Shown here piece by piece: positions 5,434-42,009 of a stretch of DNA of 63,153 nt (positions within the stretch are counted from its first letter, which is position 1; each line of letters starts with the position of its first letter). The position numbers and the translations under genes are program-made. This DNA is from an uncultured Lachnospiraceae bacterium. Lineage in GTDB: Bacteria > Bacillota > Clostridia > Oscillospirales > CAG-272. The stretch is from assembly GCA_964564225.1 (NCBI GenBank), contig CAZMAF010000001.1, positions 78,980-142,132 on the forward strand, read 5' to 3'. The notes under the pieces are model-generated. The model was not told the origin of the DNA. It worked only from the letters and a program-made list of their open reading frames with translations, and ran no database searches.

Positions 5434-5490
5434 AAGAAATCCTTTCTTGAAAAAGTCGTGTTTTTGGAAAAATCTTTTTTATCAAACTTT

Positions 5491-5519
5491 ATTATACACA
5501 AATTTTAGCGAAAAGTCAA
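5491..5519 (-). promoter_or_regulatory. Sigma-A promoter of htpG (TTGACT-17-TATAAT)
   Basis: On the minus strand, TTGACT lies at 5514-5519 and TATAAT at 5491-5496 with a 17-nt spacer, about 60 nt upstream of the htpG ATG. Confidence 0.6.
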
Positions 5520-6649
5520 TTGTTCGCGCTCTTTTTCTTCGGATATATTCCGGAATTTATTCCGATTTTCCGATACTCTGTATTTGCCATGATATGACCG
5601 TAATTTATGACGGTTTGAAGGGTACGGTACTTTTTTTCAAAGCTGTCACCGTCAAGTGTCGTGATGAGAAAAAGCGCTTTTTCGGAAAGATGTGAATAGA
5701 GCGTTTTGGAATCGAAAATATCGGTAAGATAGGGTAATACTTTATCAAGATCGCCTTTGATGAAGACAAGATAGCCCTCGGTGAGAAGCGAAGCGGTACG
5801 GAAAAGATCGACGGGCTCAGAGACGTATGCCGGGTTTCGTTCTTTATCCGATGCGTCTGACAGTGCAGTAAGCGCCTCGTCGCAGGAGTTGGCATCGAAT
5901 AGCGATTTTGGTTGAAGCAGCGGTTTGAGCGCGTGAAAACGGGCGGAGAGAGAAATATGAAATTCACGGCGATAGCATTCGGATACGTTTTGGTAAAGCG
6001 TTTTGGCAAGCGCGCGGTCGCCTGACAGCATCAACGCGTAGATCTGATAGTAATGAAAGCTTTCGCAAAAGGGATCAATCGGGACAAGTCTTTGCGCTTT
6101 GCCGTGCGCTTTCTGATATTCGCCTTTGGCAATGAGCAATTCAAGTGCATCGTTGCAAAGCGCGACAAAGGCGCGGTGATAGCGCTCGGCTTCGGGCATC
6201 GTGAAGCTTTCACCTGCAAAAGACGCCAGAAATCTGCCGCGATAAAGTGCCGTTATTTCTTCAAATAATGCGAGCTTTTCCTCGTTTTCCGCGCTTTTGA
6301 AGGCAGTGAGGAGCTTTTCAAAGCGTTCGGTATCTGACGAAAAAACAAGCGTTTGGGAAAAGGCGATACAGCCGTTTTGCAGGATAATGGTTTCTTTTGT
6401 ACCGAAGACTGAGAGCATCCTGCGCAAGCGGTGCAGTGTGGTTTTGACAAGAGATTCATTTTTATATCTTGAAAAATCCTTATCGTTGTGCAGAAAACGG
6501 GAAAATTCTGCCGTTTCAATCACTCTGTTTCGGTTTTTGACAAGATAGGCGAGCGCGCGGAAAAGCCGCCCGGCACGACTTTGTTTTGCGGATAGCGTAA
6601 CATCGTTCTGCGTGAGCGAAAAATCGCCGAAAAAGGTAATATAGATCAT
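5516..6649 (-). CDS. Transcriptional regulator with winged-helix and BTAD/TPR-like (SARP-type) architecture
   Basis: The track ORF is 538 aa, but the credible start is MIYITFFGDFSL at 6647-6649, preceded by GGAGG. The helical BTAD-like region includes ...LYRGRFLA...ERYHRAFV... Confidence 0.6.
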   Translation of the reverse strand: MIYITFFGDFSLTQNDVTLSAKQSRAGRLFRALAYLVKNRNRVIETAEFSRFLHNDKDFSRYKNESLVKTTLHRLRRMLSVFGTKETIILQNGCIAFSQTLVFSSDTERFEKLLTAFKSAENEEKLALFEEITALYRGRFLASFAGESFTMPEAERYHRAFVALCNDALELLIAKGEYQKAHGKAQRLVPIDPFCESFHYYQIYALMLSGDRALAKTLYQNVSECYRREFHISLSARFHALKPLLQPKSLFDANSCDEALTALSDASDKERNPAYVSEPVDLFRTASLLTEGYLVFIKGDLDKVLPYLTDIFDSKTLYSHLSEKALFLITTLDGDSFEKKYRTLQTVINYGHIMANTEYRKIGINSGIYPKKKSANN

Positions 6650-18558: not shown

Positions 18559-18704
18559 AGAATATAAACTTCCTTTTGCAAAAGATCGTTTTCGTAAATT
18601 GTCCTTATGTTATACTGCCTGTATTGTATATTATACAGTAGTTCGCACGTATTGTCAAGGGAATTCACAGCAAAACTGAGGCAGGGATTGTTGGTAAAAA
18701 ACGG

Positions 18705-25980: not shown

Positions 25981-26856
25981 TTATTCAATCGTAACCGAAT
26001 ACTGATACGAAGCTGATTCCCCAACCTCAAGAGCATTCGTCCAAGGCTTTTCAGGGAGTTCGCCCTCAAAACCTACGCCGTCACATCTGCCATACCATGG
26101 CTCAATGCAAACAAAAGGACAATCCTCCTTATAAGGCGACCAAATACCCACGACAGGAGCATCAAACGCAACCTCAACAAAGGGCTCATAGGTATCGTCA
26201 CAAAGCGCAATCGCATGTACCTGCGAATTTTCAAACACTAACGCATCATTCTTGAAAAGATCCTTTTCAAGACGAATCATACGATTCGGCATAATATGCA
26301 CCGCATCCTTCGCATTTACTTCGACGTCGGCATAACGGTCGGTAATCGTCGTAATCGTCTGCGGCATTTTATCAAACATAATGTAACAGTCCTCACGCTT
26401 AACGTCTTCGGGAAGATTAAACGCGGGATGCGCGCCGATTGCATAATACATCGTACCTTCACTCTTATTTTCAACCGTCCACTTGACAAGCAGCGTGTTA
26501 TTTTGAAGGCTGTATTCAACCGCCAGAACGAAATCAAACGGAAAATTCTCGCGGGTAGCTTCATTTGATTCCAAAGCAAAGGTAATCCGCGTACTCTCTT
26601 TTTCTACAAATGTAAACTCACAGTCACGCGCAAAACCGTGCTGCGGCATATGATAGGACTTGCCTTCAAAACGATAGGTGTCCCCGATTTCCGCCCCTAC
26701 GAAAGGAAACAGAATAGGCGAACGACGTCCCCAGAACGCCGCATCTCCCTGCCACAAATATTCTCTACCGTCAGAACTTTTCACGCTCTGCAATTCTGCA
26801 CCAAGGTCAGAAACCGTAACGACAAGACAATTATTCGATATGGTGTGTAATGCCAT
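25981..26856 (-). CDS. Aldose 1-epimerase-family protein
   Basis: 291 aa. Blocks GAELQSV...REYLWQGD...WGRRSPILFPFVG and HPAFN are characteristic. Confidence 0.8.
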   Translation of the reverse strand: MALHTISNNCLVVTVSDLGAELQSVKSSDGREYLWQGDAAFWGRRSPILFPFVGAEIGDTYRFEGKSYHMPQHGFARDCEFTFVEKESTRITFALESNEATRENFPFDFVLAVEYSLQNNTLLVKWTVENKSEGTMYYAIGAHPAFNLPEDVKREDCYIMFDKMPQTITTITDRYADVEVNAKDAVHIMPNRMIRLEKDLFKNDALVFENSQVHAIALCDDTYEPFVEVAFDAPVVGIWSPYKEDCPFVCIEPWYGRCDGVGFEGELPEKPWTNALEVGESASYQYSVTIE

Positions 26857-27038
26857 AATAGACTCCGTTTATTAAAATGATAGACACCCAAAACGTATTG
26901 ATATCAACAACACGCTCTATTGTATGTATTAGTATAGCACAAATTGAAAAAAATAACAAGACCTTTTGCGAATTTTATCGAAAAAAAGCATTTTTGTCAT
27001 TTTCGAACCATAAGCAAAACATCGACCGCTACCTTATG

Positions 27039-28085
27039 TCATTCAGCTAAAACATAAAGATTCAGATCCCACGCAGGCACGTAAGCAAAACGCCTCAGAT
27101 AAAAACGGTAATCCGGGACAATACTGCTAAGAAAAAGCGGCAATCGGAAAAGATCTTCATTACGGTGATAAACTGACACAAGGAGATCGGGACGGTACCG
27201 TTTGATCGTCTCAAGCGAACCCACAAGTGCCTCATATTCGCTACCTTCGACATCATATTTAATATAATCTACCGCCCTGCCATTAAGAATAAAATCGAGT
27301 GTTCGGACGGCAACACTCCCCCTTCCTTCTCCTGTGCGCGCATTTCGATTGCCGCTTTGACTGAACGACATCTCACCGTTTACAGAATAAGCGGCACAGT
27401 TGTGACATTCCACAAAATCAAGTCCGCTCGCCTCAACAAATGCCGTGAGCTTTTTGAAATTACGGCAATCCGGCTCAAGTGACACAACCTGCGAAAGATT
27501 TGGAAAATGCACCATAAATTCCCGCACACTGTCCCCGTTATACGCGCCAAGATCGGCACAGGTTTCGTAACGCTCCGATGGAAGTAAAGAAACAAAAACC
27601 TCCTCGTACGAGGATGTAGCTTCCTTCAGATAGCAAAGCTTGCCCGTCAACTTATATGCGATCACCGCATCAAAAATACGGCAGGATTCCTCATCCGCCA
27701 GCAAAGCACGCGCCGCATCAAATTCAGCACGGTGCGTTTCATAAAATTCAAGATCAAATACCGCGCCGCCAACAACGGGAACGTCAGGCGCATATACCTC
27801 ATATTCCGCATCCAATGCATACATACGCGCCATCACGTCAGGTAAAGAACTTGCAAAAGCGATCAAAACAATAAAATCTTCAAACCGCTCCTTGATCTCA
27901 TCAAATTTCATCACACGAAGCGAGCGAAAGCTCTGCCCACGCACGAAATCATCCGAAGCAAAATAAGCCGATACAGAAAGTCCGCGGCGTTCAAGCTCGT
28001 CCGCAATTTTATCCGCACCGTTTCCCATACCGTAAATAACGATCGGCTTATTCGCGCCTTGAAGATATGTCCAAAGATCAATCAT
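27039..28085 (-). CDS. FkbM-family methyltransferase
   Basis: 348 aa. The SAM-binding region is DLGAYNGDSV and the C-terminus has the FkbM-like block DYIKYDVEGSE. Confidence 0.7.
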   Translation of the reverse strand: MIDLWTYLQGANKPIVIYGMGNGADKIADELERRGLSVSAYFASDDFVRGQSFRSLRVMKFDEIKERFEDFIVLIAFASSLPDVMARMYALDAEYEVYAPDVPVVGGAVFDLEFYETHRAEFDAARALLADEESCRIFDAVIAYKLTGKLCYLKEATSSYEEVFVSLLPSERYETCADLGAYNGDSVREFMVHFPNLSQVVSLEPDCRNFKKLTAFVEASGLDFVECHNCAAYSVNGEMSFSQSGNRNARTGEGRGSVAVRTLDFILNGRAVDYIKYDVEGSEYEALVGSLETIKRYRPDLLVSVYHRNEDLFRLPLFLSSIVPDYRFYLRRFAYVPAWDLNLYVLAE

Positions 28086-28900
28086 AACGAAAACAGCCTC
28101 TTCGCGTTGCCATACAGGATAGCCTCGCGCTCAACGTCACCCCATCCTTGCATGTCGAAAAGTTCCTTGTACTGCCTAATAGTCATAACCGGAAAATCCG
28201 TACCAAACATAACGCGATCAACGCCGCACGCCGCCGTAATCTCGACCGCGCGTTCAGGTGTCATTGCCCAGAGCGCACTTGAATTATCATACCAAACCTG
28301 CGGATTACCGTATAAAAACGCCGCCGCCTCATCCCACGCCTGATAACCGCCAAGATGGGAGGCGATTACCGTAAGTTTTGGAAATCGTCCAAGCAGCTTT
28401 GCAAGCTTTTTCGGCTCGGAATAACGGTACTCCTCTCGATCGTCACCCATGTGAAAATTAATAATCATTCTTCCCTCCGCCGCCTCACAGATGCGGTACA
28501 TACGCTTGTCCAGAAGATCAAAACGCTGAATGTCGGGATGAATTTTAATACCGGTAAGACCAAGCGATAACGCGCGATCAAGCTCCGCCTCCACTTCATC
28601 AAAATCCTGATGCATCGAAGCAAAACCAACCGTTTCAAAGCCTGCTTCCCTTGCGTTAATCATGCGGGAAGCAATATAATCATTGATACTTTTTACCTGA
28701 TGCGCCGTCGTTGCCACTGAAAAAACGAGAAATCCGCTTGTTTCATTTTCACGGCACTCTGAAAGATATCCGTCATACGTGCCCACGCCGGGAACGTCAA
28801 AATTATAAAATTTCCCAAGTGCAACACGCGCGCGATCAGCAATCGCATCAGGATAAACATGAACGTGCGCATCAAAAAGCTTCTCAGCCATCGCCAGCAC
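28082..28900 (-). CDS. Amidohydrolase-family metal-dependent hydrolase (TIM barrel)
   Basis: 272 aa. N-terminal FDAHVHVYPD metal-binding motif and a C-terminal FGTDFP block. It overlaps the next gene by 4 nt. Confidence 0.75.
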   Translation of the reverse strand: MLAMAEKLFDAHVHVYPDAIADRARVALGKFYNFDVPGVGTYDGYLSECRENETSGFLVFSVATTAHQVKSINDYIASRMINAREAGFETVGFASMHQDFDEVEAELDRALSLGLTGIKIHPDIQRFDLLDKRMYRICEAAEGRMIINFHMGDDREEYRYSEPKKLAKLLGRFPKLTVIASHLGGYQAWDEAAAFLYGNPQVWYDNSSALWAMTPERAVEITAACGVDRVMFGTDFPVMTIRQYKELFDMQGWGDVEREAILYGNAKRLFSL

Positions 28901-28935
28901 TTCCTTTCTTCAAAAACATCTTGAAAAAGACGGAG

Positions 28936-30273
28936 TTATTTTCCGTCTTTTCCGTAAAATTCTTCATAAATCGCACGAATCACGACAGTCATATCCTTCT
29001 CTGCGACACTGAGAATGATACTGAACTCACTCGAGCCTTGGTCGATGGTGCGAATATTCACACCGCTCTTTGCAACAGCAGTAAAAACGCGAGCAGCAGT
29101 TCCTACGCGGTTCACCATACCTCGTCCCACGACAGCGATAAGCGCAAGTCCCTCTTCAAGCTGAATGCTGTCAGGCTCTACCACGCGGCAGATCTGATTG
29201 ATTACCTGATCGCGCTTAGGCAAAAGCGCCTCGGTTGCCGCAATAACACCCACCGAGTCGATACCCGATGGCAAATGCTCAAATGAAATACCGTTATTTT
29301 CAAAAACGTGAAGCACGCGGCGGCCAAAGCCCACCTGCGCATTCATCATATCCTTTTCAATCGTAAGCACCGAAAATCCACATTTACCCGCAATACCGGT
29401 GATCTCACCGCATTCCGTTCCCTTTTCAGCGTGCGCCAGAATCATCGTGCCGGGATCTTCGGGACGGTTGGTATTACGGATATTGATCGGAATACCCGCC
29501 ATACGTACAGGGAAAATTGCATCCTCATGCAAAACGTTCGCACCGCGGTAGGAAAGCTCGCGAAGCTCGTGATACGTAATCACTCCGATCGTCTTAGGAT
29601 TTTTTACAATGCGAGGATCGGCAACAAGAAAGCCGGATACGTCTGTCCAGTTTTCGTAAAGATCAGCATCACACGCGCGCGCAACCACCGAACCGCTGAT
29701 GTCACTGCCGCCACGCGAGAAAGTCTGTACTGTCCCATCCTGACGCGCACCGTAAAAACCGGGAATAACTGCGTGCGTGTGCAGTTTCAATACAGTAGAC
29801 ATCACCTTCTGTGTCTTATAAACATCAAGAAATCCATCCTCATCAAAGAAAAGAACGTCCTTGGCATCAATAAAATCGTAGCCAAGCGCCTTTGCCAGAA
29901 CGATACCGTTCAGATACTCGCCGCGGCTCGCCACGTAATCACTATCACACCCCGATGCAATCGTTTCCTCAATCACACGAAATTCATCCGACAAATCAAG
30001 AGAAAGCGAAAGTCCGTCAATAATGTCCTGATAGCGCTTTTGAATAACGGTAAGAACTGTGCGGAAATCACCCTTCACCTTCGCTACATTATAACATTCG
30101 TACAGCTTATCGGTTATCTTAAAATCACCGTCAAAACGCTTGCCCGGTGCCGAAGGGACGACGTAACGGCGCGTTTCGTCCGCACGGATAATATCAATTA
30201 CTTTTTGGAACTGTGCAGCATCCGCAAGAGAACTGCCACCAAATTTCACTACCTTTACGTATTCGGTCTTCAC
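28936..30273 (-). CDS. lysC: Aspartate kinase
   Basis: 445 aa with a GTG start. VVKFGGSSLADA kinase motif and C-terminal ACT repeats. Confidence 0.85.
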   Translation of the reverse strand: MKTEYVKVVKFGGSSLADAAQFQKVIDIIRADETRRYVVPSAPGKRFDGDFKITDKLYECYNVAKVKGDFRTVLTVIQKRYQDIIDGLSLSLDLSDEFRVIEETIASGCDSDYVASRGEYLNGIVLAKALGYDFIDAKDVLFFDEDGFLDVYKTQKVMSTVLKLHTHAVIPGFYGARQDGTVQTFSRGGSDISGSVVARACDADLYENWTDVSGFLVADPRIVKNPKTIGVITYHELRELSYRGANVLHEDAIFPVRMAGIPINIRNTNRPEDPGTMILAHAEKGTECGEITGIAGKCGFSVLTIEKDMMNAQVGFGRRVLHVFENNGISFEHLPSGIDSVGVIAATEALLPKRDQVINQICRVVEPDSIQLEEGLALIAVVGRGMVNRVGTAARVFTAVAKSGVNIRTIDQGSSEFSIILSVAEKDMTVVIRAIYEEFYGKDGK

Positions 30274-30332
30274 AAATCTATACCTCTACTCTGTGTCATT
30301 CATATCTTCGGCAATTTTCGCCACAACAATAT

Positions 30333-30361
30333 ATTATATGAAATATTTTTCCATTTGTCAA
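30333..30361 (-). promoter_or_regulatory. Sigma-A promoter of lysC (TTGACA-17-TATAAT)
   Basis: On the minus strand, TTGACA lies at 30356-30361 and TATAAT at 30333-30338 with a 17-nt spacer. Confidence 0.6.
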
Positions 30362-30451
30362 GTCGCCGCTTCGACTTTTTTGAGAATTCGCCAAACCACG
30401 CCCTTATTTCCATTAAATCTCTCAAATTATTATTTTATTTTTCCAAATTAC

Positions 30452-30480
30452 TTGACAACGTATCTTAAATTTGCTATAAT
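30452..30480 (+). promoter_or_regulatory. Consensus sigma-A promoter of the tracrRNA
   Basis: TTGACA at 30452-30457, a 17-nt spacer, then TGcTATAAT with TATAAT at 30475-30480. Both hexamers are perfect and the TG extension is present. Confidence 0.8.
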
Positions 30481-30486
30481 AATCAC

Positions 30487-30576
30487 AGTCTTAAATCATA
30501 CCAAAGACTAATAGGTTGCTATGATAAGGTAGTAAACCGAAAAAGCTCTGACGACCCTCGCGGTCGTTATCTTTTT
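30487..30576 (+). ncRNA. tracrRNA: tracrRNA of the type II-C system
   Basis: The anti-repeat at 30490-30525 pairs with the 36-nt repeat through 30 Watson-Crick pairs, 3 G-U pairs and one 2x2 internal loop. It is followed by AAGG, the hairpin ACGACC-CTCGC-GGTCGT and TTTTT. GTTGCTATGATAAGG resembles the N. meningitidis tracrRNA GUUGCUACAAUAAGG as I recall it. The 5' end is predicted from the promoter. Confidence 0.8.
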
Positions 30577-30582
30577 ATACCA

Positions 30583-32191
30583 CTATTAGTTTTTGGTATG
30601 ATTTAACCGCTTGCCCCTTAATGAGGTGCGTGCAAACGTCGTAGCTCCCTATTAGTTTTTGGTATGATTTAACTTTTCGGCGCGTATCGTGCTCTCTTTG
30701 CATGTCGTAGCTCCCTATTAGTTTTTGGTATGATTTAACGGTGTTTTTTACGAGCATTTGCCGAAACCAGTCGTAGCTCCCTATTAGTTTTTGGTATGAT
30801 TTAACCATATTTTTTCGTAGATGTCGAATTCCCAAGTCGTAGCTCCCTATTAGTTTTTGGTATGATTTAACCGTCGTCGTTCCCGCAAACGCGTTTATGA
30901 TGTCGTAGCTCCCTATTAGTTTTTGGTATGATTTAACAAGCACGCTTGAACCGAAACGTATCACGATGTCGTAGCTCCCTATTAGTTTTTGGTATGATTT
31001 AACAAGCACGCTTGAACCGAAACGTATCACGATGTCGTAGCTCCCTATTAGTTTTTGGTATGATTTAACTAACTTCGGGATATTATGTTGTCACTCTATG
31101 TCGTAGCTCCCTATTAGTTTTTGGTATGATTTAACAGCTTTCTCACCGTCCCGTCATCCATGCGGGTCGTAGCTCCCTATTAGTTTTTGGTATGATTTAA
31201 CCAGGCGAAAAGGCGGTATTGATAAATGGATAGTCGTAGCTCCCTATTAGTTTTTGGTATGATTTAACGCATCAATCTGCTTTATGGCTCTGTTCGTAGT
31301 CGTAGCTCCCTATTAGTTTTTGGTATGATTTAACAGATAGCCCGAACGGTATGCACGCGATTCTGTCGTAGCTCCCTATTAGTTTTTGGTATGATTTAAC
31401 AGTACAAGCAGACAATGCAAGCGCGGCACAGTCGTAGCTCCCTATTAGTTTTTGGTATGATTTAACAAGAAAAGTTTAATGGACATATCATGAAAGGTCG
31501 TAGCTCCCTATTAGTTTTTGGTATGATTTAACACAACTACGAAAGAAACGACTAATAACAAAGTCGTAGCTCCCTATTAGTTTTTGGTATGATTTAACAT
31601 CCCGTTCTTTTTGTTGTCGGGTGTCCGAGTCGTAGCTCCCTATTAGTTTTTGGTATGATTTAACATCTGACTTGCCTATAAATTTCTTCGCGTGGTCGTA
31701 GCTCCCTATTAGTTTTTGGTATGATTTAACATAAAGGTGATAAACCCCTGTGGAGGTGGCGTCGTAGCTCCCTATTAGTTTTTGGTATGATTTAACAAAC
31801 GGCTCGCATTCAAGAGAAACAATCTTGTCGTAGCTCCCTATTAGTTTTTGGTATGATTTAACATGATGGTATGTCAACCGCCTTAAAGCGTAGTCGTAGC
31901 TCCCTATTAGTTTTTGGTATGATTTAACGCCACAGCCTCTGCATTGGTCTTTGTTGCCGTCGTAGCTCCCTATTAGTTTTTGGTATGATTTAACTTTTCA
32001 GCGACTTCCTTTTCCACGCCTAAAGTCGTAGCTCCCTATTAGTTTTTGGTATGATTTAACCTCCGCACACTCTGATAGCGAATACGTCTCGTCGTAGCTC
32101 CCTATTAGTTTTTGGTATGATTTAACACAGTAGCAGAGCTGTATGAGCGCCTGCGGTCGTAGCTCCCTATTAGTTTTTGGTATGATTTAAC
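30583..32191 (+). CRISPR. CRISPR array: 24 full 36-nt repeats plus one 5'-truncated repeat, and 24 spacers of 29-31 nt (23 unique)
   Basis: The repeat GTCGTAGCTCCCTATTAGTTTTTGGTATGATTTAAC starts at 30638, 30704, ... 32156, and all copies look identical by eye. A truncated copy (CTATTAGTTTTTGGTATGATTTAAC) lies at 30583-30607. The plus-strand orientation follows from similarity to the Neisseria type II-C repeat GTTGTAGCTCCC... and from tracrRNA pairing. Confidence 0.97.
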
Positions 32192-32200
32192 TGACAGGGC

Positions 32201-32237
32201 AAAAATCCCCGAAATCCATGTGATTTCGGGGATTTTT
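32201..32237. terminator. Bidirectional terminator between cas2 and the array
   Basis: AAAAATCCCCGAAATC-CATGT-GATTTCGGGGATTTTT. Confidence 0.8.
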
Positions 32238-32289
32238 CGTTTTAAAAAAACTGAAATTTCTGTAAAAACAAGTATAAAAAAGTTGTTTT

Positions 32290-32619
32290 TCAAAAAAGCG
32301 TAAGCTGAAGATCCTGCGGCTTTATCAATTCATCTTTTTGATACTGCCCGACCAATAAGCGAATCGCATCATATTGCTTTTCCGTAATCACCAAAAGACG
32401 CACCGATCCGTTTGGCGGCAAATTTCCTTTCAAACGAGCCTCATGCTTAGCAACGGCATCCATACCGTTACACAAACGCGCGTAAACGGAAAACTGCACC
32501 ATATAATATCCGTCTTTCAGCAAAAAATTACGGAATTTCGTAGCAGCGTGCCGCTCCGCTTTAGTTTTAACGGGAAGATCAAAAAACACCAACACTCTCA
32601 TAAACTTACTCGTATTCAT
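32290..32619 (-). CDS. cas2: CRISPR-associated endoribonuclease Cas2
   Basis: 109 aa. MRVLVFFDLPVKTKAERHAATKFRNFLLKDGYYMVQFSVYARLC is a typical Cas2 N-terminus. It overlaps the cas1 stop. Confidence 0.9.
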   Translation of the reverse strand: MNTSKFMRVLVFFDLPVKTKAERHAATKFRNFLLKDGYYMVQFSVYARLCNGMDAVAKHEARLKGNLPPNGSVRLLVITEKQYDAIRLLVGQYQKDELIKPQDLQLTLF

Positions 32620-33505
32620 GTCGTTTTAATTCAGCAAAAGTAGGTAACAAAAGCTTCTTTTCAGGATCATCATAAGCCGAAAGCAAACTATTTACAAGCC
32701 GTTCTGCCGCATAGGCCATCGTATGATGCTCCCCGCCCGACAGCATCTCATAATTCAAAATATTTTGCAATTCCCTCTTGGTCGAAATATCAAATTCATC
32801 AAAATTACAATTTTGAAAAACAAAAGCATCCACCAACGAACGAAACGGCTCAATCAGATCATCGGCAAGATTAAAAGGATTTAACTCACTACGGTGATGA
32901 ATGCCCAAACACGGCTCAAAGCCCCGCGAAGCGATCAACCGAGCCAAATAACCGCGCACGATCGCATAACCGTAATTCAACGCCGCGTTAATGGCAGACT
33001 CATCAGATCGCGTGAAATCCGCGCCAAACAAAAGCCGGAAATAAAGCGCCGCCGCTTTGGCTTCCACGTTTGTCTTATCTCCAGACTGTACCGATGAAAC
33101 AAGCCCCGAAAGCCTTTGTATAAACGATTCATCTACACCGCACACCGAAAGACACGCCGCCTGATTTTGAATTTTAGCAACAACAATACTCTTCCACATC
33201 TGTTTGAGCTGTGGCTGAGACGGCGATAACTGCAACAGTAACTGCTTTCTCTGTCGGGAATGTTGTCCAATCGGTTGAAGCAAAGCACAAGGCAAATGCT
33301 TATCGTCACAAATATACACACAAATACCGTGTATCGCAAACGCTGATAGCGCATAGGTGGAAATCTGCGACGAACGGCTTTCGAGAATCACCGTGCGAAT
33401 ATCCTCAAGCGGTACTCGTCCCTCGGCAGCGCCGGAAATAACCAACTGCTCATTTTTTACCGTGATCGAAACCGAAGACGAAATCACAATGTTGCGATAT
33501 CCCAT
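32606..33505 (-). CDS. cas1: CRISPR-associated endonuclease Cas1 (type II)
   Basis: 299 aa. Blocks ALNYGYAIVRG...GFEPCLGIHHRSELNPFNLADDLIEPFR carry the Cas1 metal-binding residues. Confidence 0.9.
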   Translation of the reverse strand: MGYRNIVISSSVSITVKNEQLVISGAAEGRVPLEDIRTVILESRSSQISTYALSAFAIHGICVYICDDKHLPCALLQPIGQHSRQRKQLLLQLSPSQPQLKQMWKSIVVAKIQNQAACLSVCGVDESFIQRLSGLVSSVQSGDKTNVEAKAAALYFRLLFGADFTRSDESAINAALNYGYAIVRGYLARLIASRGFEPCLGIHHRSELNPFNLADDLIEPFRSLVDAFVFQNCNFDEFDISTKRELQNILNYEMLSGGEHHTMAYAAERLVNSLLSAYDDPEKKLLLPTFAELKRHEYE

Positions 33506-33506
33506 T

Positions 33507-36500
33507 TTACGACCTCTTCTGCGTAAAAGGCTGTCTACGCTCTTTTCCTACCAATCGCACGTTACCAAGCACATCGACCTCGTATTTTTCAATTCTCAAT
33601 GTCGTTTTACCGATAGTGCGATGTGTATACGTTCCGTCGTGCGTTATTCCTCTGAGAACGGCAACCGAAATATCCAGTCCCTTATTATAGAGGAACACAC
33701 CGTCGCCCCCACTTAATGTCTTCGTCTTAGGCAGCGTACTGCCTGCTTTTTCTAGCTTTCCATCAAGTGAAAGTGAAAAATCTTTTTTAAAATACACCTT
33801 TATAAGATCATTGGGATATAATGAAAATTGAAAATCAGAATCTCTCATTTGTTTCCAGATTTTCTTATCATTCTTGTCTTTAGCCGCTGTCGGCGCCATA
33901 CTCGGCAATTCCGCCTTAACCGTATCATGAACGTAGATCGGCACAAAATAATAACCATCATCCTCAACGTAAAATACGTCAATACGGATCATATCGCCAT
34001 TCGCGGCAATACCCGTACCCCCATGCACGTCAACGAACGAAGAAATACGCTCTCGAATCTTGACCGAGGTCACAAGCGTACCCTCGCCGCCTTTCTTAGA
34101 GGGCTTATACACAGGCTTTGCAAAAGCCTGTGACGCATCCCCGTTATGCTCAATCAAGCGGTCTGCAAGAATAGCATACAATACGGGATCGGAATCGTTA
34201 TAATATCCCTCGATCTGTCCGCTTTTCCACTTCAATTTCGTCAAAGGAACCTTGGAAACAAGATATCCGTCATCCTTGAGCTTTCCACTGTAAACCGTTG
34301 CCTTATTAGCAGCTCCCTTGATCTTATGACGGCACATACGCGATACAAAAGGCGCCGTCACACTTTCTAAATCGACCTCTGCATAATTCGGAAAATTCTT
34401 ATCATTCAACTGCTTACGTACTGCCGCATCATCCTGACACAGACGAATCGTCAATTCATCAAGAAACCACGGCCACGGTCTTGGAAATTTAACAATAACG
34501 TCATTCGACTTCTCAATAACCTCACCCGTAATCGCATCCACAAGATACTCCTCCGCATATTGCGTTTCTTCATACCGAGCATGACGATTGATCTCGTTAA
34601 TCATACCTTGTGAAATACAACCAATAACAGTTGCATCAAGCGCATGATGCAAATCGCCGTCAGCACGCACCTTACGAACACCCCATCTTGCACGTACAAC
34701 CGCAGTAATCATACCGTTCACGGCATATACGTGACGCTTTTTACCGCTGCTGAACGGAGAAAATGCAAGATAGTCGTTAATATATCCATACAAAAACCGT
34801 GAAAGATACTGTGTATCTTGTAAATTACGCGCTTTCCATTCCGACTCATTCGAAATCTTTTCCTTCAAAAGCAAAGCTTTTTTATTTGCTTTTAACCGAC
34901 TTGTTTTAACCCAGACTATGAAATCATCACGCTTTTGACCGGTCAGATATTGAAGCGGTAAACGGTTTGACTTATTACGATTTTCCGCCGTTCTGACCAA
35001 AACCTTATTCACCATTCTATCGTCAAAACATTGGCTATACGGAACGATATGATCAACTTCAACCAATCGGTGATCCATAAGCTCCTCAAAGGATATATTT
35101 GTCAAAGAATACGCGCAAACCTTACCCTGTTCATTCCAAAGCTTATACTTAACAAGATCAAATCCGGTGGGCTGTTTTACACCAAGCCCACGAAGTTCAT
35201 CCATCATCCGCTCATTTTGTGCCGCATTTTCCTTCTGCAATTTTTCAATCTTATTGCGTTCCTCAAAGGTCTTGGAAAGCTCCCTTGCAAGCTCGATATT
35301 CAGATATACAGGACTTTCCTCACCCATAAAACGAATAATCGCATTCAAGACTTTGATCGTCTGCGACACCGCACGCTTAACAACAGGGTTCGTAATCGCT
35401 GTACTCGTAGCATCAAGCCCGGGAAGGTATTTAAACTTTTCCGTGTTTTCCGCCTTAAAAGCATACCCTGCCGCCTCGCAAGCCTTATCATAAGTAAGTC
35501 CTTTTTCAAGATGAGGAATAATTTTCCGAAGCGCCTTCAAGGATAAATGTCCGTTTTTCGCCTTATTATCGAGAGTCAGCACACGATCGATAATTTCCTG
35601 CGAAAAATCCGCTTTAAGAAGCTGCTTGGTAATTTCTTCATCCGAATAATTCTTCGAAAACACCATACCGATCACGTCAAGTTGCTCGTGAGAAACGAAT
35701 ACAAATAGATCATCCCCAAGCGCAGCCTTCACTTTGTGATAAAATTCAAGATCGTTAAGCTTTGACTTGTCCTCTGCCTTTTTAACGTCCTCACCCTTCA
35801 CATACGTAATACCTCTAAAAAGCGCATCGTCGCTCAACTGCAAAAGCTTTCTGATTTGTAAATAACTCAACGTTTTCTTTTTATGACATTCATCAACGAT
35901 CAAACGGCGCTCTTCATCCGCCAATGAACGCACGTCCCCGTTTTCGATAATACGAATATGATTAACATGCTGCCACAAATTGAAAATCTGAAATGAATAC
36001 GTCGCCTTCGCCGCGCGAGGCTCGTCCTTTTCAAAGGTACAATTCCCGCGCATTCTGTCTACCTGATTGCCAGCGTACGGACCGCAAGCGGGTCCGTCTG
36101 CAAACGAACGCTGTCTTAATAAAATCTCACAGTATAACGCCTCGTTTTCTTCAGTAGCAAACAAATGTCCGTATTCCCGCTGCTTACCGAAAATCAAATG
36201 CACCTCATCTTCAATCGAAGCACGGTCGACCGTACAGTCAAACTGCCCCGCCCGATTTCGCCTCTGCTCCAAATGATAAAACATCTCGCCAACCGTGCGA
36301 TAACCTTTTTTGGCACAAAGCTCACGGTTTTTGGCAACCGCGCTCAACATTTGCGAGCCTTCAGTATCTTTTTTATCCTCTGCCTTACGATTGGATTTAA
36401 AACCTCTTCTTTGCGCTAAATGAATCAATACACGCGCAAATTCTTCATCTGTCAGACGCTCATCAAGCGCCTTCACACGAAGCCCGTACACGTCGGAAAG

Positions 36501-36791
36501 TTCCTTTCCGTCATATAAAGTATCAAGCGCATCTTGAGTTAAAAGCCCGGAAGAACAAATCAAATTACGAATACGCTCTTTTCTGTGTCTTCTGCGGCGA
36601 ACCGTTCTTCTGGCACAACGGAAAACTCTGCGCTCTTCTGCAAGTGGATCTCCCGTTTTCGGCAACTCTGCCTTTTCAAAAATACGGGAACCAAGCTTGA
36701 TAATACGACAAGGATTATCATTTCCGTCAAGCTCCAATACCGAATATCCAACCGATGCAATTCCAACGTCCAGACCGATAGCATATTTCAT
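33507..36791 (-). CDS. cas9: Cas9 endonuclease, compact type II-C-size ortholog (1094 aa)
   Basis: RuvC-I KYAIGLDVGIASVGYSVL (D8). Arg-rich bridge helix RRVFRCARRTVRRRRHRKERIRNL. RuvC-II NIELARE. HNH VEVDHIVPYSQCFDDRMVNKVLVRTAENRNKSNRLP. RuvC-III DLHHALDATVIG. No csn2 or cas4 is present in the locus. Confidence 0.95.
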   Translation of the reverse strand: MKYAIGLDVGIASVGYSVLELDGNDNPCRIIKLGSRIFEKAELPKTGDPLAEERRVFRCARRTVRRRRHRKERIRNLICSSGLLTQDALDTLYDGKELSDVYGLRVKALDERLTDEEFARVLIHLAQRRGFKSNRKAEDKKDTEGSQMLSAVAKNRELCAKKGYRTVGEMFYHLEQRRNRAGQFDCTVDRASIEDEVHLIFGKQREYGHLFATEENEALYCEILLRQRSFADGPACGPYAGNQVDRMRGNCTFEKDEPRAAKATYSFQIFNLWQHVNHIRIIENGDVRSLADEERRLIVDECHKKKTLSYLQIRKLLQLSDDALFRGITYVKGEDVKKAEDKSKLNDLEFYHKVKAALGDDLFVFVSHEQLDVIGMVFSKNYSDEEITKQLLKADFSQEIIDRVLTLDNKAKNGHLSLKALRKIIPHLEKGLTYDKACEAAGYAFKAENTEKFKYLPGLDATSTAITNPVVKRAVSQTIKVLNAIIRFMGEESPVYLNIELARELSKTFEERNKIEKLQKENAAQNERMMDELRGLGVKQPTGFDLVKYKLWNEQGKVCAYSLTNISFEELMDHRLVEVDHIVPYSQCFDDRMVNKVLVRTAENRNKSNRLPLQYLTGQKRDDFIVWVKTSRLKANKKALLLKEKISNESEWKARNLQDTQYLSRFLYGYINDYLAFSPFSSGKKRHVYAVNGMITAVVRARWGVRKVRADGDLHHALDATVIGCISQGMINEINRHARYEETQYAEEYLVDAITGEVIEKSNDVIVKFPRPWPWFLDELTIRLCQDDAAVRKQLNDKNFPNYAEVDLESVTAPFVSRMCRHKIKGAANKATVYSGKLKDDGYLVSKVPLTKLKWKSGQIEGYYNDSDPVLYAILADRLIEHNGDASQAFAKPVYKPSKKGGEGTLVTSVKIRERISSFVDVHGGTGIAANGDMIRIDVFYVEDDGYYFVPIYVHDTVKAELPSMAPTAAKDKNDKKIWKQMRDSDFQFSLYPNDLIKVYFKKDFSLSLDGKLEKAGSTLPKTKTLSGGDGVFLYNKGLDISVAVLRGITHDGTYTHRTIGKTTLRIEKYEVDVLGNVRLVGKERRQPFTQKRS

Positions 36792-36827
36792 ATTTTAACA
36801 ACCTCCAAATCAATTGGTATCTATTGT

Positions 36828-36856
36828 ATTTTAACAAATATTAACGCATAAATCAA
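36828..36856 (-). promoter_or_regulatory. Candidate promoter of the cas9-cas1-cas2 operon
   Basis: On the minus strand, TTGATT lies at 36851-36856, followed by a 17-nt spacer and TGtTAAAAT with TAAAAT at 36828-36833. GGAGG RBS before the cas9 ATG. Confidence 0.55.
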
Positions 36857-36916
36857 TATATTTTTTTCTTTTTATGAATAAAAAAGAAAAAATTTTACCT
36901 CTTATCTAAATTTATA

Positions 36917-36945
36917 TTGCATTTTCAATCCGGGTATGCTATAAT
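36917..36945 (+). promoter_or_regulatory. Candidate promoter of mgtE
   Basis: TTGCAT, a 17-nt spacer, then TGcTATAAT. Confidence 0.55.
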
Positions 36946-36976
36946 AATTTCATTCTAAAAAATCGGAGGTGACGAT

Positions 36977-38359
36977 ATGATCCTTTCTCCGGAAAATGTA
37001 ATGATGCATATCGAAGCGAAACAGTATTCTATATTGCGCACAGCGCTCAGTGAAGAAAATCCATTTGATATTGCCGCACTTTTATCTGAACTATCACCCG
37101 AAGCCGTATTGCTCGTATTCCGCATACTTTCGAAGGACGTTGCCGCCGAAACCTTCGTCGAAATGGATAGCGACAGTCAGGAGCTTCTCATACACTCTTT
37201 TAACGATAGCGAGCTTCGCTATCTCACCGACGAACTTTTTTATGACGATATCGTAGACTTGATCGAAGAATTACCCGCAGGTCTTGTTACAAGAATTTTA
37301 GCAAACGCAACTCCCGAAACCCGCTCTGCGATCAATCATCTGCTCAAATACTCATCCGATTCCGCAGGTGGCATGATGACGCTCGAATACGTCAAACTAA
37401 AACCCGCAATGACGGTCGAAGAAGCATTTGACACAATAAAACGCACCGGCATCGATAAGGAAACGATCTACACCTGCTACGTCACAGGACCTGCCAAGCA
37501 TCTGCTCGGTGTCGTCACCGTCAAGGATATGCTGCTCGCCCCTTCCTATTCCACAATGGAAGACATTATGGAAACCAATATCATCTCGGTTTCTACGCAA
37601 GACGACAAAGAATCGGTTGCCAATCTCTTTGTCGACTACGGATTTCTCGCCCTGCCCGTCGTGGATACAGAAAACCGCCTCGTCGGTATCGTTACCGTCG
37701 ATGATGCCATGGAAGTCATCTCCGAAGAAAGCGAAGAAGATATTCAGATCATGGCGGCAATCACACCATCCGATACGCCCTATCTTAAAACCTCAGTCTT
37801 TTCCATCTGGAAATCGCGTATCCCGTGGCTTCTGCTTCTGATGATTTCCTCCACCTTTACAAGCCTTATCATCAGCTCATTTGAAGATGCGCTCGCCGCC
37901 TCAATGGCGCTCACCGCCTTTATTCCCATGCTGATGGGTACGGGAGGCAATTCAGGCTCTCAGGCATCCGTTACCGTCATCCGCGCCCTCTCGCTCGACG
38001 AGATCAGTTTCAAGGACCTGTTCCGGGTCATTTGGAAAGAAACATGTGTCGGCTTCTTCTGTGCCATCACGCTCGCAGTCGCAAGCTTTATCAAGATCGT
38101 CTTGATTGATATTATGCTCCTGCCCAATAGTCCGATGACACTCTCCGCCGAGGGCATTCTCATTACCTCCGTCGTGTGTATCGCGCTCGCCGTCACAGTG
38201 CTTTGTGCTAAATTCATCGGCGCAATCCTTCCGCTCGTCGCTAAAAAGGTCGGCTTCGACCCCGCCGTTATGGCAAGCCCTTTTATCACAACCATCGTCG
38301 ATGCCCTTTCCCTGCTCGTCTACTTCTTCTTTGCACAAGCTTTAATTCCCGGACTCTGA
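36977..38359 (+). CDS. mgtE: Magnesium transporter MgtE
   Basis: 460 aa. N-domain, tandem CBS domains (LLGVVTVKDML, LVGIVTVDDAM) and a C-terminal 5-TM domain with GNSGSQ. Confidence 0.9.
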   Translation: MILSPENVMMHIEAKQYSILRTALSEENPFDIAALLSELSPEAVLLVFRILSKDVAAETFVEMDSDSQELLIHSFNDSELRYLTDELFYDDIVDLIEELPAGLVTRILANATPETRSAINHLLKYSSDSAGGMMTLEYVKLKPAMTVEEAFDTIKRTGIDKETIYTCYVTGPAKHLLGVVTVKDMLLAPSYSTMEDIMETNIISVSTQDDKESVANLFVDYGFLALPVVDTENRLVGIVTVDDAMEVISEESEEDIQIMAAITPSDTPYLKTSVFSIWKSRIPWLLLLMISSTFTSLIISSFEDALAASMALTAFIPMLMGTGGNSGSQASVTVIRALSLDEISFKDLFRVIWKETCVGFFCAITLAVASFIKIVLIDIMLLPNSPMTLSAEGILITSVVCIALAVTVLCAKFIGAILPLVAKKVGFDPAVMASPFITTIVDALSLLVYFFFAQALIPGL

Positions 38360-38378
38360 TACCAAAAACTTCACACCC

Positions 38379-38411
38379 AAAAGGAGCTTTTCCGTCAGCG
38401 AAGCTCCTTTT
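38379..38411 (+). terminator. Terminator of mgtE
   Basis: AAAAGGAGCTT...AAGCTCCTTTT. Confidence 0.7.
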
Positions 38412-38609
38412 CAATTTAGTAGAATATCCTCAAAAAACCTTCAATTTTAACTTAATTGCCATAAAAAACAAATCCGTGGCAATAGTATAATAGAGGCAAT
38501 AATCGAAAACGTCAAACATCCTGTAACATACCGACCGTACAAAAAACTATCATTTTTTATTGAACGAACCATCGAGATGTTGACTCGTCAACTTTTTTCT
38601 TAAAATCTA

Positions 38610-38638
38610 TTGACAATTTCCGGAAAATCCTGTATAAT
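38610..38638 (+). promoter_or_regulatory. Consensus promoter of the acyl-CoA ligase gene
   Basis: TTGACA at 38610-38615, a 17-nt spacer, and TATAAT at 38633-38638. Confidence 0.6.
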
Positions 38639-38678
38639 AAAGAAAACTATCCCAACCACACCAAGAAAGGTACGGATT

Positions 38679-40376
38679 ATGAAATATAAAAGTAATAAGG
38701 TTTATGAGATCCGCGACGTTCACTCGATCCGAGATATCTTTGAATCGGCGTGCGAACTCTATCCCGACAATATTGCTTTTTTGAGAAAAAGCAATGATAT
38801 AATTGAAGAAATCACCTATGCACGCACACACAACGAAACCGTTGCACTTGCCACCTACCTGAACGACATCGGCCTTTCCGGAAAAAAAATCGCCGTTATC
38901 GGTCAGAACTCGTACGAATGGTCAATCACCTATCTCGCAGTCACCTGCGGCGTCGGTATCATCGTTCCCTTAGATAAGGAATTAAAACCTGACGAGATCA
39001 CATATCTCTCGAGCGATTCCGGCATTGCAGCCATCGTCTATTCAGAAGAAGTAACCGAAAAACTTAACGGCATCGCCCCCTCGGTGCTTCGTCTGCCGAT
39101 GAGTCAATTCCGTGAATACTGTGCGAAAGGCAGTGAGTTACTTGAAAACGGCGATACTACCTACCGCGATTACACCTTTGATCCTGATGCGATGAGCGTT
39201 CTCATCTACACTTCCGGCACAACGGGGCTCGCCAAAGGCGTTATGCTCAGTCAGACAAACATTGCCTTTGATGTGCATAGCACCCTGCTCCGCATCCGCG
39301 TATACGAAAACGACCGCACACTTTCTATTCTTCCCCTCCACCACACATATCAGTGCATGGCAGGATTTCTCGTCTTCATCTACTCGGGCGCGAGCATCGC
39401 TTTCATCGAAACAATCCGCCATCTCCAGCAGGATATGCTCACCTATCAGCCCACTGTCTTCATCGCTGTCCCCCTCGTTCTCGAATCTTTCCTGAAAGCC
39501 ATTCAGAAAAAATATTCAAAAATTTTTGCAGGTAATGCCGTTTTCACAACGCAAAAAGCCATTTCCTCGCTCTTTAAGCTTGCGCCTTCCGTATCAAAAG
39601 GCATCTTTACTTCGGTCAACAAGGCGCTCGGCGGCAAGATGCGCGCCATTCTCTGCGGTGCTGCCGCCCTTTCCCCCGAGATTTACCGTGCCTACGAAGC
39701 TTTCGGTCTTCGCGTATTCATTGGCTACGGTCTTACAGAAACCTCCCCCGTGTCTCTCGTTCACAACGACTTTTACACCTCGCCAAACGACGTCGGTTAT
39801 CCCATTGAAGGCGTACAGGCAATGCTCGTCAACGTTAACGAAGAAGGCGTCGGTGAGCTGATCCTCAAAGGAAAAAACGTAATGCTCGGCTACTACAACA
39901 ATCCCATCGAAACTGCAAAAGTCTTAAAAGACGGCTGGTTCTATACAGGTGACCTTGCCCGCATGAATAAAAACGGCAGCTTTTCAATCACAGGCAGAAC
40001 CAAGAGTATGATCGTTATTCAAAGCGGCAAAAAAATCTTTCCCGAGGAACTTGAATACGACCTTGAAAAAAGTCCCTTGATCAAAGAAGCTCTCGTCTTT
40101 GGCCATGACGAAGAAGACGGCACAACGCAGGTTGCCGCCTCGATCTATCCCGATTACGAAAAGATCGAGCTGGAAATGGGCAAACAACACCCGCCAAAAG
40201 ACAGTGACGAATACAAACAACAGGTACTTGATATTATCAGTAAGATCGTGCGCGACGTCAACCGCCGCGTTCCGCATTATAAGTGCATCCGCAAGATCAT
40301 TATCAAGAAAAACGAATTTGAAAAAACCTCAACCCGTAAAATCAAACGCATCCCCTCAAATTACCGCGAGGACTGA
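38679..40376 (+). CDS. Long-chain-fatty-acid--CoA ligase (AMP-binding enzyme)
   Basis: Start MKYKSNKVYEI. The AMP-binding motifs are YTSGTTGLAKGVMLS and GYGLTETSP. Confidence 0.85.
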   Translation: MKYKSNKVYEIRDVHSIRDIFESACELYPDNIAFLRKSNDIIEEITYARTHNETVALATYLNDIGLSGKKIAVIGQNSYEWSITYLAVTCGVGIIVPLDKELKPDEITYLSSDSGIAAIVYSEEVTEKLNGIAPSVLRLPMSQFREYCAKGSELLENGDTTYRDYTFDPDAMSVLIYTSGTTGLAKGVMLSQTNIAFDVHSTLLRIRVYENDRTLSILPLHHTYQCMAGFLVFIYSGASIAFIETIRHLQQDMLTYQPTVFIAVPLVLESFLKAIQKKYSKIFAGNAVFTTQKAISSLFKLAPSVSKGIFTSVNKALGGKMRAILCGAAALSPEIYRAYEAFGLRVFIGYGLTETSPVSLVHNDFYTSPNDVGYPIEGVQAMLVNVNEEGVGELILKGKNVMLGYYNNPIETAKVLKDGWFYTGDLARMNKNGSFSITGRTKSMIVIQSGKKIFPEELEYDLEKSPLIKEALVFGHDEEDGTTQVAASIYPDYEKIELEMGKQHPPKDSDEYKQQVLDIISKIVRDVNRRVPHYKCIRKIIIKKNEFEKTSTRKIKRIPSNYRED

Positions 40377-40842: not shown

Positions 40843-42009
40843 TCAACCGATTCCAATGAACAAAGAAGGATTTCCGTCTGTCAAAAGAACCAAAAGCGCA
40901 AGCAATGCTGTCAATCCAAGCCCCAGGAGTACCGCAAAAAAGACCCGCCAAGGCGAGATCGGCGCTCTGCCGCCCACTCTGCCCGTCTGTCCGTTTACCA
41001 TAAAATAATACGCTTTATTACGATACGTAAAATGCGACATCCACACAGGAAGCATCAGATATTTATACGAAATATCCCGATATCGTGTATGCACCGTCAG
41101 GTCGGCAACACGGTCGGCGCGATGTCGACGTCTTATCTCGGACGAAATTGAACTTTGAAGCATCGTCGAAATTCCCGAGCGAGCTCCCGCCCACGCATCT
41201 TCAAGTCCCACCGAATACCGCTCTGCCGCAAAACCGGAAAGATATTCCGGCTTATATACGATACTGCTTTCGGTATCGAAAGGCTCGATTTTTGAAAGAA
41301 GTCCCGCATTATGCCGTGTTGTACCTTTGATCAGGAAATCATTAAAAAACTCCGAATAATGACCGTTCGTATGATACCATCTGACGTAGGTTTCGGTACG
41401 GCGGTTTTTACCGCTCCCCACTGTTCTCGTATGAACGATACCGTAACGCGCCGAGTAACGCGACTCGGTCATTGCATCAAATGTCCAATACGGCAAATAA
41501 ATACCGTTCAGGATAACACGCCCCGCATCCTTTTTTATACGCGACGGACAAAATAAACGGCGCTTGATCCACAGTCGGAAATTATCCTCGGCACGCTTTG
41601 AATCTACTGAAAAAGGGCAAATACCGCCCGGCGCAAGCGTATTGTCATCAGCCGCCTCCATGATCTGATTAGAGCCGCAATACTGACAAACACCCGCTGT
41701 TTCCAAGGCATCATAAAGGGTTTCAGCAGCGCAGTTCTTACAAATAACAACCTTTTTGGCAACGCCCCAGTCACAGCTGCCGCGTACGAGCGCCTCGTCA
41801 AAAGAAAGCTCCTCGCAAAGATCGGCCACACTTTCGTCCTCAATGGAAACCGTGGTTTCACAGTAAGGGCAGTAAAGACAGTTCGTCTTTGGATCAAAAA
41901 CCATGGTTGCATCACAGGCAGGACACTTTTTATCGGTTTTATCGAGCGTTAAAGCAATCGAAGTCTCTTCGAAACCTTCATTTTCCCGAGAATTGAAATC
42001 TGTCTTCAT
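40843..42009 (-). CDS. Zinc-ribbon protein with a C-terminal TM anchor (B. subtilis YdjG-like?)
   Basis: 388 aa. Three CxxC pairs (CPACDAT...CPYCET, CKNC...CQYCGS) and a C-terminal hydrophobic helix FFAVLLGLGLTALLALLVLL. This is the last gene of the 5-gene operon. Confidence 0.6.
   Translation of the reverse strand: MKTDFNSRENEGFEETSIALTLDKTDKKCPACDATMVFDPKTNCLYCPYCETTVSIEDESVADLCEELSFDEALVRGSCDWGVAKKVVICKNCAAETLYDALETAGVCQYCGSNQIMEAADDNTLAPGGICPFSVDSKRAEDNFRLWIKRRLFCPSRIKKDAGRVILNGIYLPYWTFDAMTESRYSARYGIVHTRTVGSGKNRRTETYVRWYHTNGHYSEFFNDFLIKGTTRHNAGLLSKIEPFDTESSIVYKPEYLSGFAAERYSVGLEDAWAGARSGISTMLQSSISSEIRRRHRADRVADLTVHTRYRDISYKYLMLPVWMSHFTYRNKAYYFMVNGQTGRVGGRAPISPWRVFFAVLLGLGLTALLALLVLLTDGNPSLFIGIG

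Follow-up and report, generated by a model that had tools for sequence, protein, structure and literature searches.

The CRISPR arrays associated with GeoCas9 and CcCas9, like those of N. meningitidis and C. jejuni, are transcribed in the direction opposite to the cas operon, and in the latter two bacteria a degenerate repeat occupies the transcriptionally upstream end of the array. The guide RNA of GeoCas9, from Geobacillus stearothermophilus, is available as an experimentally optimised and validated sgRNA (Harrington et al. 2017, supplementary data 3; PMC5681539), in which the repeat GUCAUAGUUCCCCUGAG... is paired with the anti-repeat ...CUCAGGGUUACUAUGAUAAGGGC. The duplex consists of an 8-bp lower stem opening with a G-U pair, a 2x2 loop of UC opposite UU and an upper stem, and is followed by AAGG (PMC5681539). 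Little cleavage was obtained with GeoCas9 sgRNAs whose tracrRNA part after the tetraloop fell below 91 nt (PMC5681539).

With regard to the location of tracrRNA genes, Faure et al. (2018) distinguished three positions only, none of them beyond the array. Anti-repeats at the end of the array were already catalogued by Chylinski et al. (2013; PMC3737331), who reported the array-distal position to be common in type II-B loci and described a common architecture within one Cas9 subcluster, a pattern that is seen in the present data too. Sites near the array end were also mentioned by Dooley et al.

The DNA analysed here, a stretch of 63,153 nt from an uncultured Lachnospiraceae bacterium (the window), contains a compact type II-C CRISPR-Cas locus. 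The element at 30452-30576 is very probably the tracrRNA gene of this locus, with a predicted scaffold role for its Cas9. Transcription of the element, the exact ends of the RNA, its processing by RNase III or otherwise, and the binding and activity of Cas9 are inferred from the sequence.

Organisation of the CRISPR-Cas locus

The order of elements on the plus strand is the tracrRNA gene, the array including its truncated first repeat (30572-32191), and then cas2, cas1 and cas9, which are minus-strand genes (Table 1). Gene calls and a profile search found neither csn2 nor cas4 in the cas9-cas1-cas2 operon; together with the compact Cas9 and the 36-nt repeats, this is the composition of a type II-C locus. 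Among solved structures, the best matches of the Cas9 protein were chains 8uza/8jtj (~1087 aa) and 9ar4 (1082 aa), with E about 1e-219 and labelled in the table of matches just "Cas9"; from the entry codes we take them to be GeoCas9 and ThermoCas9, respectively. The next solved relatives, the 6jdq group (E 1e-183), are on the same grounds presumably NmeCas9.

Table 1. Features of the CRISPR-Cas locus and its flanks, in window coordinates
Feature	Position	Strand	Description
Aspartate kinase gene (flanking)	28936-30273	-	
tracrRNA promoter	30452-30480	+	-35 TTGACA 30452-30457, 17-nt spacer, extended -10 TGcTATAAT 30472-30480
Predicted primary tracrRNA	30487-30576	+	about 89-90 nt; start A30487 or G30488, end in T-run
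Anti-repeat	30490-30525	+	duplex with 8-bp lower stem opening with G-U, 2x2 loop (UC/UU), 25-bp upper stem
AA and nexus mini-hairpin	30526-30538	+	GGU(30528-30530)-AGUAA-ACC(30536-30538); in MFE fold and cofold
Conserved linker	30539-30548	+	GAAAAAGCUC (family motif AAAGCUCUG)
Intrinsic terminator	30549-30576	+	stem UGACGACC/GGUCGUUA, loop CUCGC, then UCUUUUU
5'-truncated first repeat	30572-30607	+	25th copy, in register; cas-distal end
CRISPR array	30608-32191	+	24 spacers (29-31 nt), 24 identical 36-nt repeats (30638-32191)
Bidirectional terminator	32201-32237	.	perfect 16-bp palindrome (A-run, stem, T-run) between last repeat and cas2 stop
cas2	32290-32619	-	TIGR01573, E 5e-24
cas1 (type II, NMENI class)	32606-33505	-	TIGR03639, E 1e-82
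cas9	33507-36791	-	1094 aa, type II-C; TIGR01865, E 5e-225; RuvC D8 and HNH motif found
mgtE (flanking)	36977-38359	+	

The repeat sequence is GTCGTAGCTCCCTATTAGTTTTTGGTATGATTTAAC, and an extended -10-like motif, TGGTATGAT, is present in 25 of 25 copies, the truncated one included. Spacers 6 and 7 (30938-30967 and 31004-31033) are identical, AAGCACGCTTGAACCGAAACGTATCACGAT, which reflects a tandem duplication of one repeat-spacer unit; one spacer has 31 nt (31202-31232) and one 29 nt (32127-32155). The palindrome that separates the array from cas2, AAAAATCCCCGAAATC-CATGT-GATTTCGGGGATTTTT (-24.9 kcal/mol, z -5.4), was not on the list of the simple terminator scan; it closes the plus-strand unit ahead of cas2 and is also kept in L028, the contig carrying the closest Cas9 relative.

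The truncated first repeat matches the repeat only over its 3' 25 nt (30583-30607), which include TGGTATGAT. In the promoter scan it carries a promoter-like site, TTTATA-17-TATGAT with TG, matching the consensus at 9/12 positions, part of which is supplied by the T-run of the tracrRNA gene; the first copy was the only one among the repeats to be called as a full promoter. A truncated repeat lies beside the tracrRNA terminator in L028, L034, L036, L037 and L040 as well.

Five perfect promoters are present in the 63-kb window, against none expected. Besides that of the tracrRNA gene, a perfect TTGACA-17-TATAAT promoter at 30333-30361 (minus strand) diverges from it towards the aspartate kinase gene, and further sites are found at 18630 (-), 38610 (+) and 61413 (-). 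The site at 38610 coincides with the start of a mechanically listed ORF (38610-40376), so the TTG start of this ORF is probably wrong. A small hairpin followed by TTTT, AAGTCG-CCGCTT-CGACTT at 30362-30385 (+), overlaps the -35 of the aspartate kinase promoter; upstream of it there is no plus-strand gene in need of a terminator.

Structure of the probable tracrRNA gene

The gene contains the parts expected of a tracrRNA: an anti-repeat outside the array that forms a lower stem with the repeat, a nexus following the hybrid, a terminator, a promoter of its own and the appropriate strand. An earlier sequence-only reading of this DNA had proposed most of these parts, including a perfect TTGACA-17-TGcTATAAT promoter, and the promoter scan agrees, scoring the site at 12/12 with TG (-10 TATAAT at 30475-30480). 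The start of the RNA was placed from spacing, 7-8 nt past the -10.

Aligned antiparallel to GTCGTAGCTCCCTATTAGTTTTTGGTATGATTTAAC, the anti-repeat forms 30 Watson-Crick and 3 G-U pairs, with 33 of 36 positions paired. Of the three positions left unpaired, two make up the 2x2 loop at repeat nt 9-10, where UC faces UU, and one is a terminal C/C at repeat nt 36; the sequence-only reading had given the same pairs and loop and had left the terminal mismatch uncounted. Co-folding of repeat and anti-repeat, which it had suggested as a check, gave -46.3 kcal/mol, far below the -9.6 +/- 2.6 of 1000 shuffled anti-repeats; the next-best duplex site in the window reaches -28.5 kcal/mol and falls in G-rich coding sequence (41398-41449).

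The tail past the anti-repeat is 51 nt long. It begins with AAGG (30526-30529), as had been noted, but the stretch between AAGG and the terminator, earlier described as a short A-rich linker, includes a conserved GGU-AGUAA-ACC mini-nexus. The single GC hairpin followed by TTTTT at the 3' end was recovered by the terminator scan, with an 8-bp stem (30549-30569) and TC preceding TTTTT at 30572-30576, and it covaries among relatives. The nexus stem, of merely 3 bp, and the modest z-score of the tail fold (-2.2) are points against the tracrRNA assignment.

The duplex, GUCGUAGC-UC-CCUAUUAG with CUAAUAGG-UU-GCUAUGAU-AAGG, has exactly the geometry of that of GeoCas9, including the lower stem and the UC/UU loop, which bears out the earlier expectation of a bulge typical of Cas9 duplexes. 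The two guides have a common CUAUGAUAAGG junction, and the repeat starts with GUCAUAGUUCCC in GeoCas9 versus GUCGUAGCUCCC in the window. This likeness provides the strongest single argument that the duplex would be recognised by a Cas9 of this family. The tails differ, that of GeoCas9 having 88 nt and several hairpins, whereas the window's has the 3-bp nexus and a single terminator hairpin. L002, L042 and L016 likewise have short nexus forms, so compactness characterises the family and is not peculiar to the window locus.

The sequence-only reading had raised the prospect of a better-pairing anti-repeat elsewhere; none was found within the 63-kb window. No second repeat-complementary site appeared there at up to 10 substitutions, nor a second anti-repeat in a G-U-tolerant scan of 26000-40000 or in a duplex-energy scan of both strands of the whole window, and the covariance model described below scored just 9.3 bits (E 9) in the cas9-mgtE intergenic region. 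A search of 30300-30800 against Rfam (release 15, 4227 models, E up to 10) gave no match to a tracrRNA family, the matches being chance miRNA and snoRNA models, of which the miRNA-precursor models caught the hairpin formed by the anti-repeat and the partial repeat. The tracrRNA model of Rfam is built on Streptococcus-type II-A RNAs, and the missing match is therefore no argument against function.

Conservation in related loci

Scans of genome and metagenome contigs with the Cas9 protein returned only relatives of 24-44% identity; closer ones came from contig look-ups and from a search of protein sequences, which yielded 3366 homologues. The nearest Cas9 among them (P0002, 82% identity) is encoded on contig L028, where the gene order is mgtE-cas9-cas1-cas2-array-tracr-aspartate kinase. 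The RNA body of L028 is that of the window apart from one substitution and an additional A; the intergenic flanks have diverged, and the promoter is present at the same spacing, with -35 TTGACA and extended -10 TGtTATACT.

In six further loci (L034/L035, L036, L037, L039, L040 and L041; Cas9 identity 54-57%) the crRNA strand carries an anti-repeat past the array, on the side away from the cas genes. Ahead of it come TTGACA, about 17 nt, TG and a -10 whose end lies 7-9 nt from its start; behind it come AAGG with a nexus hairpin, (C)AAAGCUCUG as the linker and a terminator hairpin alike in shape and different in sequence; most of these loci have a 5'-truncated first repeat just downstream. Thus all seven of the closest Cas9 relatives that were examined (54-82% identity; L028, L034, L036, L037, L039, L040 and L041, from uncultured Clostridia, Oscillospiraceae and Ruminococcaceae) keep the cas-distal position; their cas9(-cas1-cas2)-array-tracr layout, tracrRNA co-directional with the crRNAs, promoter architecture, AAGG nexus, linker, terminator and, where present, truncated first repeat are those of the window. 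The 54-57% relatives differ in a longer nexus stem, GGUUACUAC-UUAUU-GUAGUAUACC, owing to which their RNAs are about 100-105 nt long, longer than that of the window. In L034/L035, L037/L038 and L039 (Cas9 55-56%) no cas1 or cas2 was called, and cas9 is followed by the array and a cas-distal tracrRNA; these loci appear to have kept the interference genes and lost the adaptation genes.

A covariance model (R1) was built from the tracrRNAs of nine relatives, excluding the window and L028, and was given the nexus and terminator as its structure. It matched the window at 30490-30575 (+) over its full length (model positions 1-103) with 66.8 bits (E 7e-11); no other match in the window spans the whole model, and those of about 20 bits lie antisense to array repeats. 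In a search of 28 sources, R1 found one element per locus in 20 loci, 19 of them besides the window. The resulting alignment has 96% of its cells paired, with double-sided changes at 19/19 pairs; because it was fitted to the structure of the model, these counts are biased in favour of that structure. None of 500 shuffles was as good, and slid controls pair at 22-54%. The three outer nexus pairs are 98% paired with compensatory changes (18 distinct relatives), and the nexus stems of relatives are either longer or equally short. Double-sided changes were found among relatives at 10 of the 10 model pairs of the terminator, and in the linker the AAGC and C-T columns are invariant (alignment A1, nine relatives).

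The promoter is likewise conserved in orthologous loci, where the spacing of -35, TG and -10 is constant and the spacer sequence has diverged. The anti-repeat changes together with the repeat, with GATTTAA/TTAAATC in the window, GAAATAA/TTATTTC in L036 and GGTACG/CGTACC in L037. The R1 match, the conserved promoter, nexus and terminator, and this co-variation uphold the identification of the element as a tracrRNA.

The sequence at the 3' end of the anti-repeat (GGUUGCUAU) recurs in the 54-57% relatives as the 5' strand of the nexus (GGUUACUAC). Because of this resemblance, RNAalifold, applied to the MAFFT alignment A1, paired the 3' end of the anti-repeat with the 3' strand of the nexus. This proposal was not adopted for R1 and was treated as an alternative fold of the free RNA; the pairing could represent the fold of unbound tracrRNA or a trace of the origin of the longer nexus.

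Orientation of the array, protospacers and PAM

The tracrRNA promoter and terminator lie on the plus strand, and plus-strand crRNAs are therefore required. On this strand the repeat opens with GTCGTAGCTCCC, the start of type II-C repeats in the crRNA sense. The direction also agrees with that of the GeoCas9, CcCas9, N. meningitidis and C. jejuni arrays, which run against their cas operons. An exact search of seven cas2-proximal spacers against IMG/VR found matches for two of them (31929-31958 and 32127-32155), which have perfect protospacers in viral contigs (loci L043-L048), and none for the other five. The two protospacers are distinct; in plus orientation their 3' flanks, ATAGCCAA and TAATCCAA, have NNANCCAA in common, and their 5' flanks have nothing in common. 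These two independent protospacers tentatively suggest a 3' PAM near N4CCAA. Since the PAM lies on the 3' side, the plus strand is supported as the crRNA strand, and the repeat orientation and the PAM side agree with the earlier statement that the tracrRNA is co-directional with the crRNAs and antisense to the cas genes. The location of the matches fits acquisition at the cas2-proximal end, from which all the spacers searched were taken.

When the array was compared by BLAST with 50,697 cultured-phage records, only chance-level matches came up (E 0.5 or worse). The spacers of the window and of L028 had no match in any other fetched locus or in the window itself.

Proposed mechanism and alternative interpretations

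The SigA/sigma-70-type promoter is strong and would start the RNA at about 30487/30488, and the terminator would release a transcript of about 89 nt. Most crRNAs would probably be transcribed from TGGTATGAT, the extended -10 within every repeat. Its hexamer, TATGAT, ends 5 nt short of the repeat end, and a start at spacer nt 1-3 is therefore predicted, leaving a guide of about 28-30 nt unless trimmed. The truncated first repeat would have no upstream spacer to serve and one downstream to transcribe, and the ability of its TGGTATGAT part to drive that downstream spacer would explain its retention. The 5' 36 nt of the tracrRNA would anneal to the repeat part of the plus-strand crRNA, at the 5' portion of the repeat downstream of each spacer, and the duplex may be processed by RNase III. 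The duplex, the AAGG-nexus mini-hairpin and the terminator hairpin would then form the scaffold bound by Cas9, and the guide would direct cleavage of DNA with a 3' PAM, tentatively N4CCAA.

The tracrRNA promoter might also act as an array leader promoter. Transcription past the modest terminator would then give a tracr-pre-crRNA co-transcript that contributes some or all of the pre-crRNA; its anti-repeat would pair in cis with the truncated first repeat or with later ones before the RNA is cut, and tracrRNA and crRNAs would belong to one transcription unit instead of being independent genes. The tracrRNA gene is co-directional with the array, its T-run abuts or overlaps the truncated first repeat, the anti-repeat and the partial repeat can form a 24-nt hairpin with 96% complementarity, and the plus-strand unit ends in a strong terminator (32201-32237). 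In the 54-57% relatives, moreover, the -10 inside the repeat is weak, reading TATGAA or similar, which counts against it as the proposed source of crRNAs. However, an 8-bp GC-containing stem followed by U5 should stop most transcripts, a co-transcript would supply one tracrRNA per 24 repeats, and the first repeat lies anywhere between 0 and about 45 nt from the terminator, depending on the relative. Every repeat in the window has a good extended -10, and the truncated copy retains precisely that part, in keeping with the repeat-internal promoters cited for type II-C of N. meningitidis; transcription by way of such a co-transcript is thus considered rather unlikely. A broader proposal, to which we would give only a minor chance, is that in this Cas9 clade the tracrRNA gene has come to occupy the position of the array leader, its promoter, leaky terminator and conserved truncated repeat forming one unit that couples tracrRNA and crRNA output. 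Coupling would proceed either through the cis-folding co-transcript or through the setting of the first crRNA's promoter.

It is far less probable that the element is a decayed inverted terminal repeat devoid of RNA function, with the working tracrRNA located upstream of cas9 or outside the window. Array-terminal repeats are often degenerate, and the tracrRNA is just upstream of cas9 in GeoCas9, in CcCas9 and in 12 of the 20 related loci examined; yet the mismatch search, the duplex-energy scan and the covariance model found no second anti-repeat in the 63-kb window. Nor would decay be expected to spare, in eight loci, the perfect promoter, the nexus, the conserved AAAGCUCUG linker and the covarying terminator; the 3' body, moreover, is homologous to the cas9-upstream tracrRNAs of relatives such as L042 and L002. 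Still more improbable is a functional RNA on the minus strand, of a crRNA-like or scaRNA type, in which the degenerate repeat would guide Cas9 to a partial match for autoregulation. Standalone repeat-like elements with regulatory roles have been described in CRISPR-cas loci (bioRxiv 10.1101/2023.03.03.530964), and a weak promoter-like site (9/12) is present at 30504..30476, but there is no minus-strand terminator, the minus reading enters the tracrRNA promoter, and it is the plus strand that bears the strong promoter, the nexus and the terminator. Such an RNA would moreover leave Cas9 in need of a tracrRNA, none of which is found elsewhere in the window. A plus-strand tracrRNA remains the preferred interpretation.

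Position of the tracrRNA gene and its implications

The window locus resembles that of GeoCas9, whose array is likewise transcribed opposite to the cas genes, and also those of the type II-C proteins NmeCas9 and CcCas9: array and cas operon run antisense to one another, the 3' portion of every repeat contains an extended -10-like motif and the cas-distal end carries a degenerate repeat. The tracrRNA gene is upstream of cas9 in the GeoCas9 locus and upstream of the cas genes in that of CcCas9, whereas in the window it lies beyond the array. The sequence-only reading had correctly placed the gene across the array from cas9, but the position is not unusual in kind, since the array-end site was catalogued by Chylinski et al. 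(2013; PMC3737331); it is less often described for type II-C.

Homologous tracrRNAs situated upstream of cas9 and co-directional with it were found in L042 (Cas9 identity 49%) and in L001-L005, L007, L011, L012, L015, L016 and L020 (33-44%). By this comparison, the cas-distal layout with tracrRNA and crRNAs co-directional is lineage-specific and tracks Cas9 relatedness. The tails of L042 (AAGGUAGAAAACCGAAAAGCUCUGACGG...) and L002 (AAGGUAGAACACCUAAAAGCUCU...) nearly match that of the window, which suggests that the tracrRNA is orthologous between the layouts and that either its gene or the cas-array block was relocated. To interconvert the two layouts, it would suffice to invert the cas9-cas1-cas2-array block once with respect to the tracrRNA gene. 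Recombination between the anti-repeat and the array repeats was ruled out as the cause of relocation, because these are direct repeats in the cas9-upstream layout and their recombination would delete rather than invert. L004 has, beside the tracrRNA and upstream of cas9, a further short array (5397-5564 and 5858-5893) whose repeats belong to the same family.

The tracrRNA of the window leaves the current understanding of type II systems unchanged. For an uncharacterised 1094-aa type II-C Cas9 it provides a guide-RNA solution, comprising a predicted crRNA strand, tracrRNA ends and duplex geometry and a tentative PAM. The tail is 37 nt shorter than that of GeoCas9, the closest solved relative, and, if active, could inform the design of shorter sgRNA scaffolds; should the tracrRNA gene and the array leader indeed form one unit, the 51-nt tail would represent a naturally minimal type II-C scaffold. 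The comparison also documents a 5'-truncated first repeat kept beside the tracrRNA terminator, and homologous tracrRNAs at two positions within one Cas9 family, upstream of cas9 and beyond the array.
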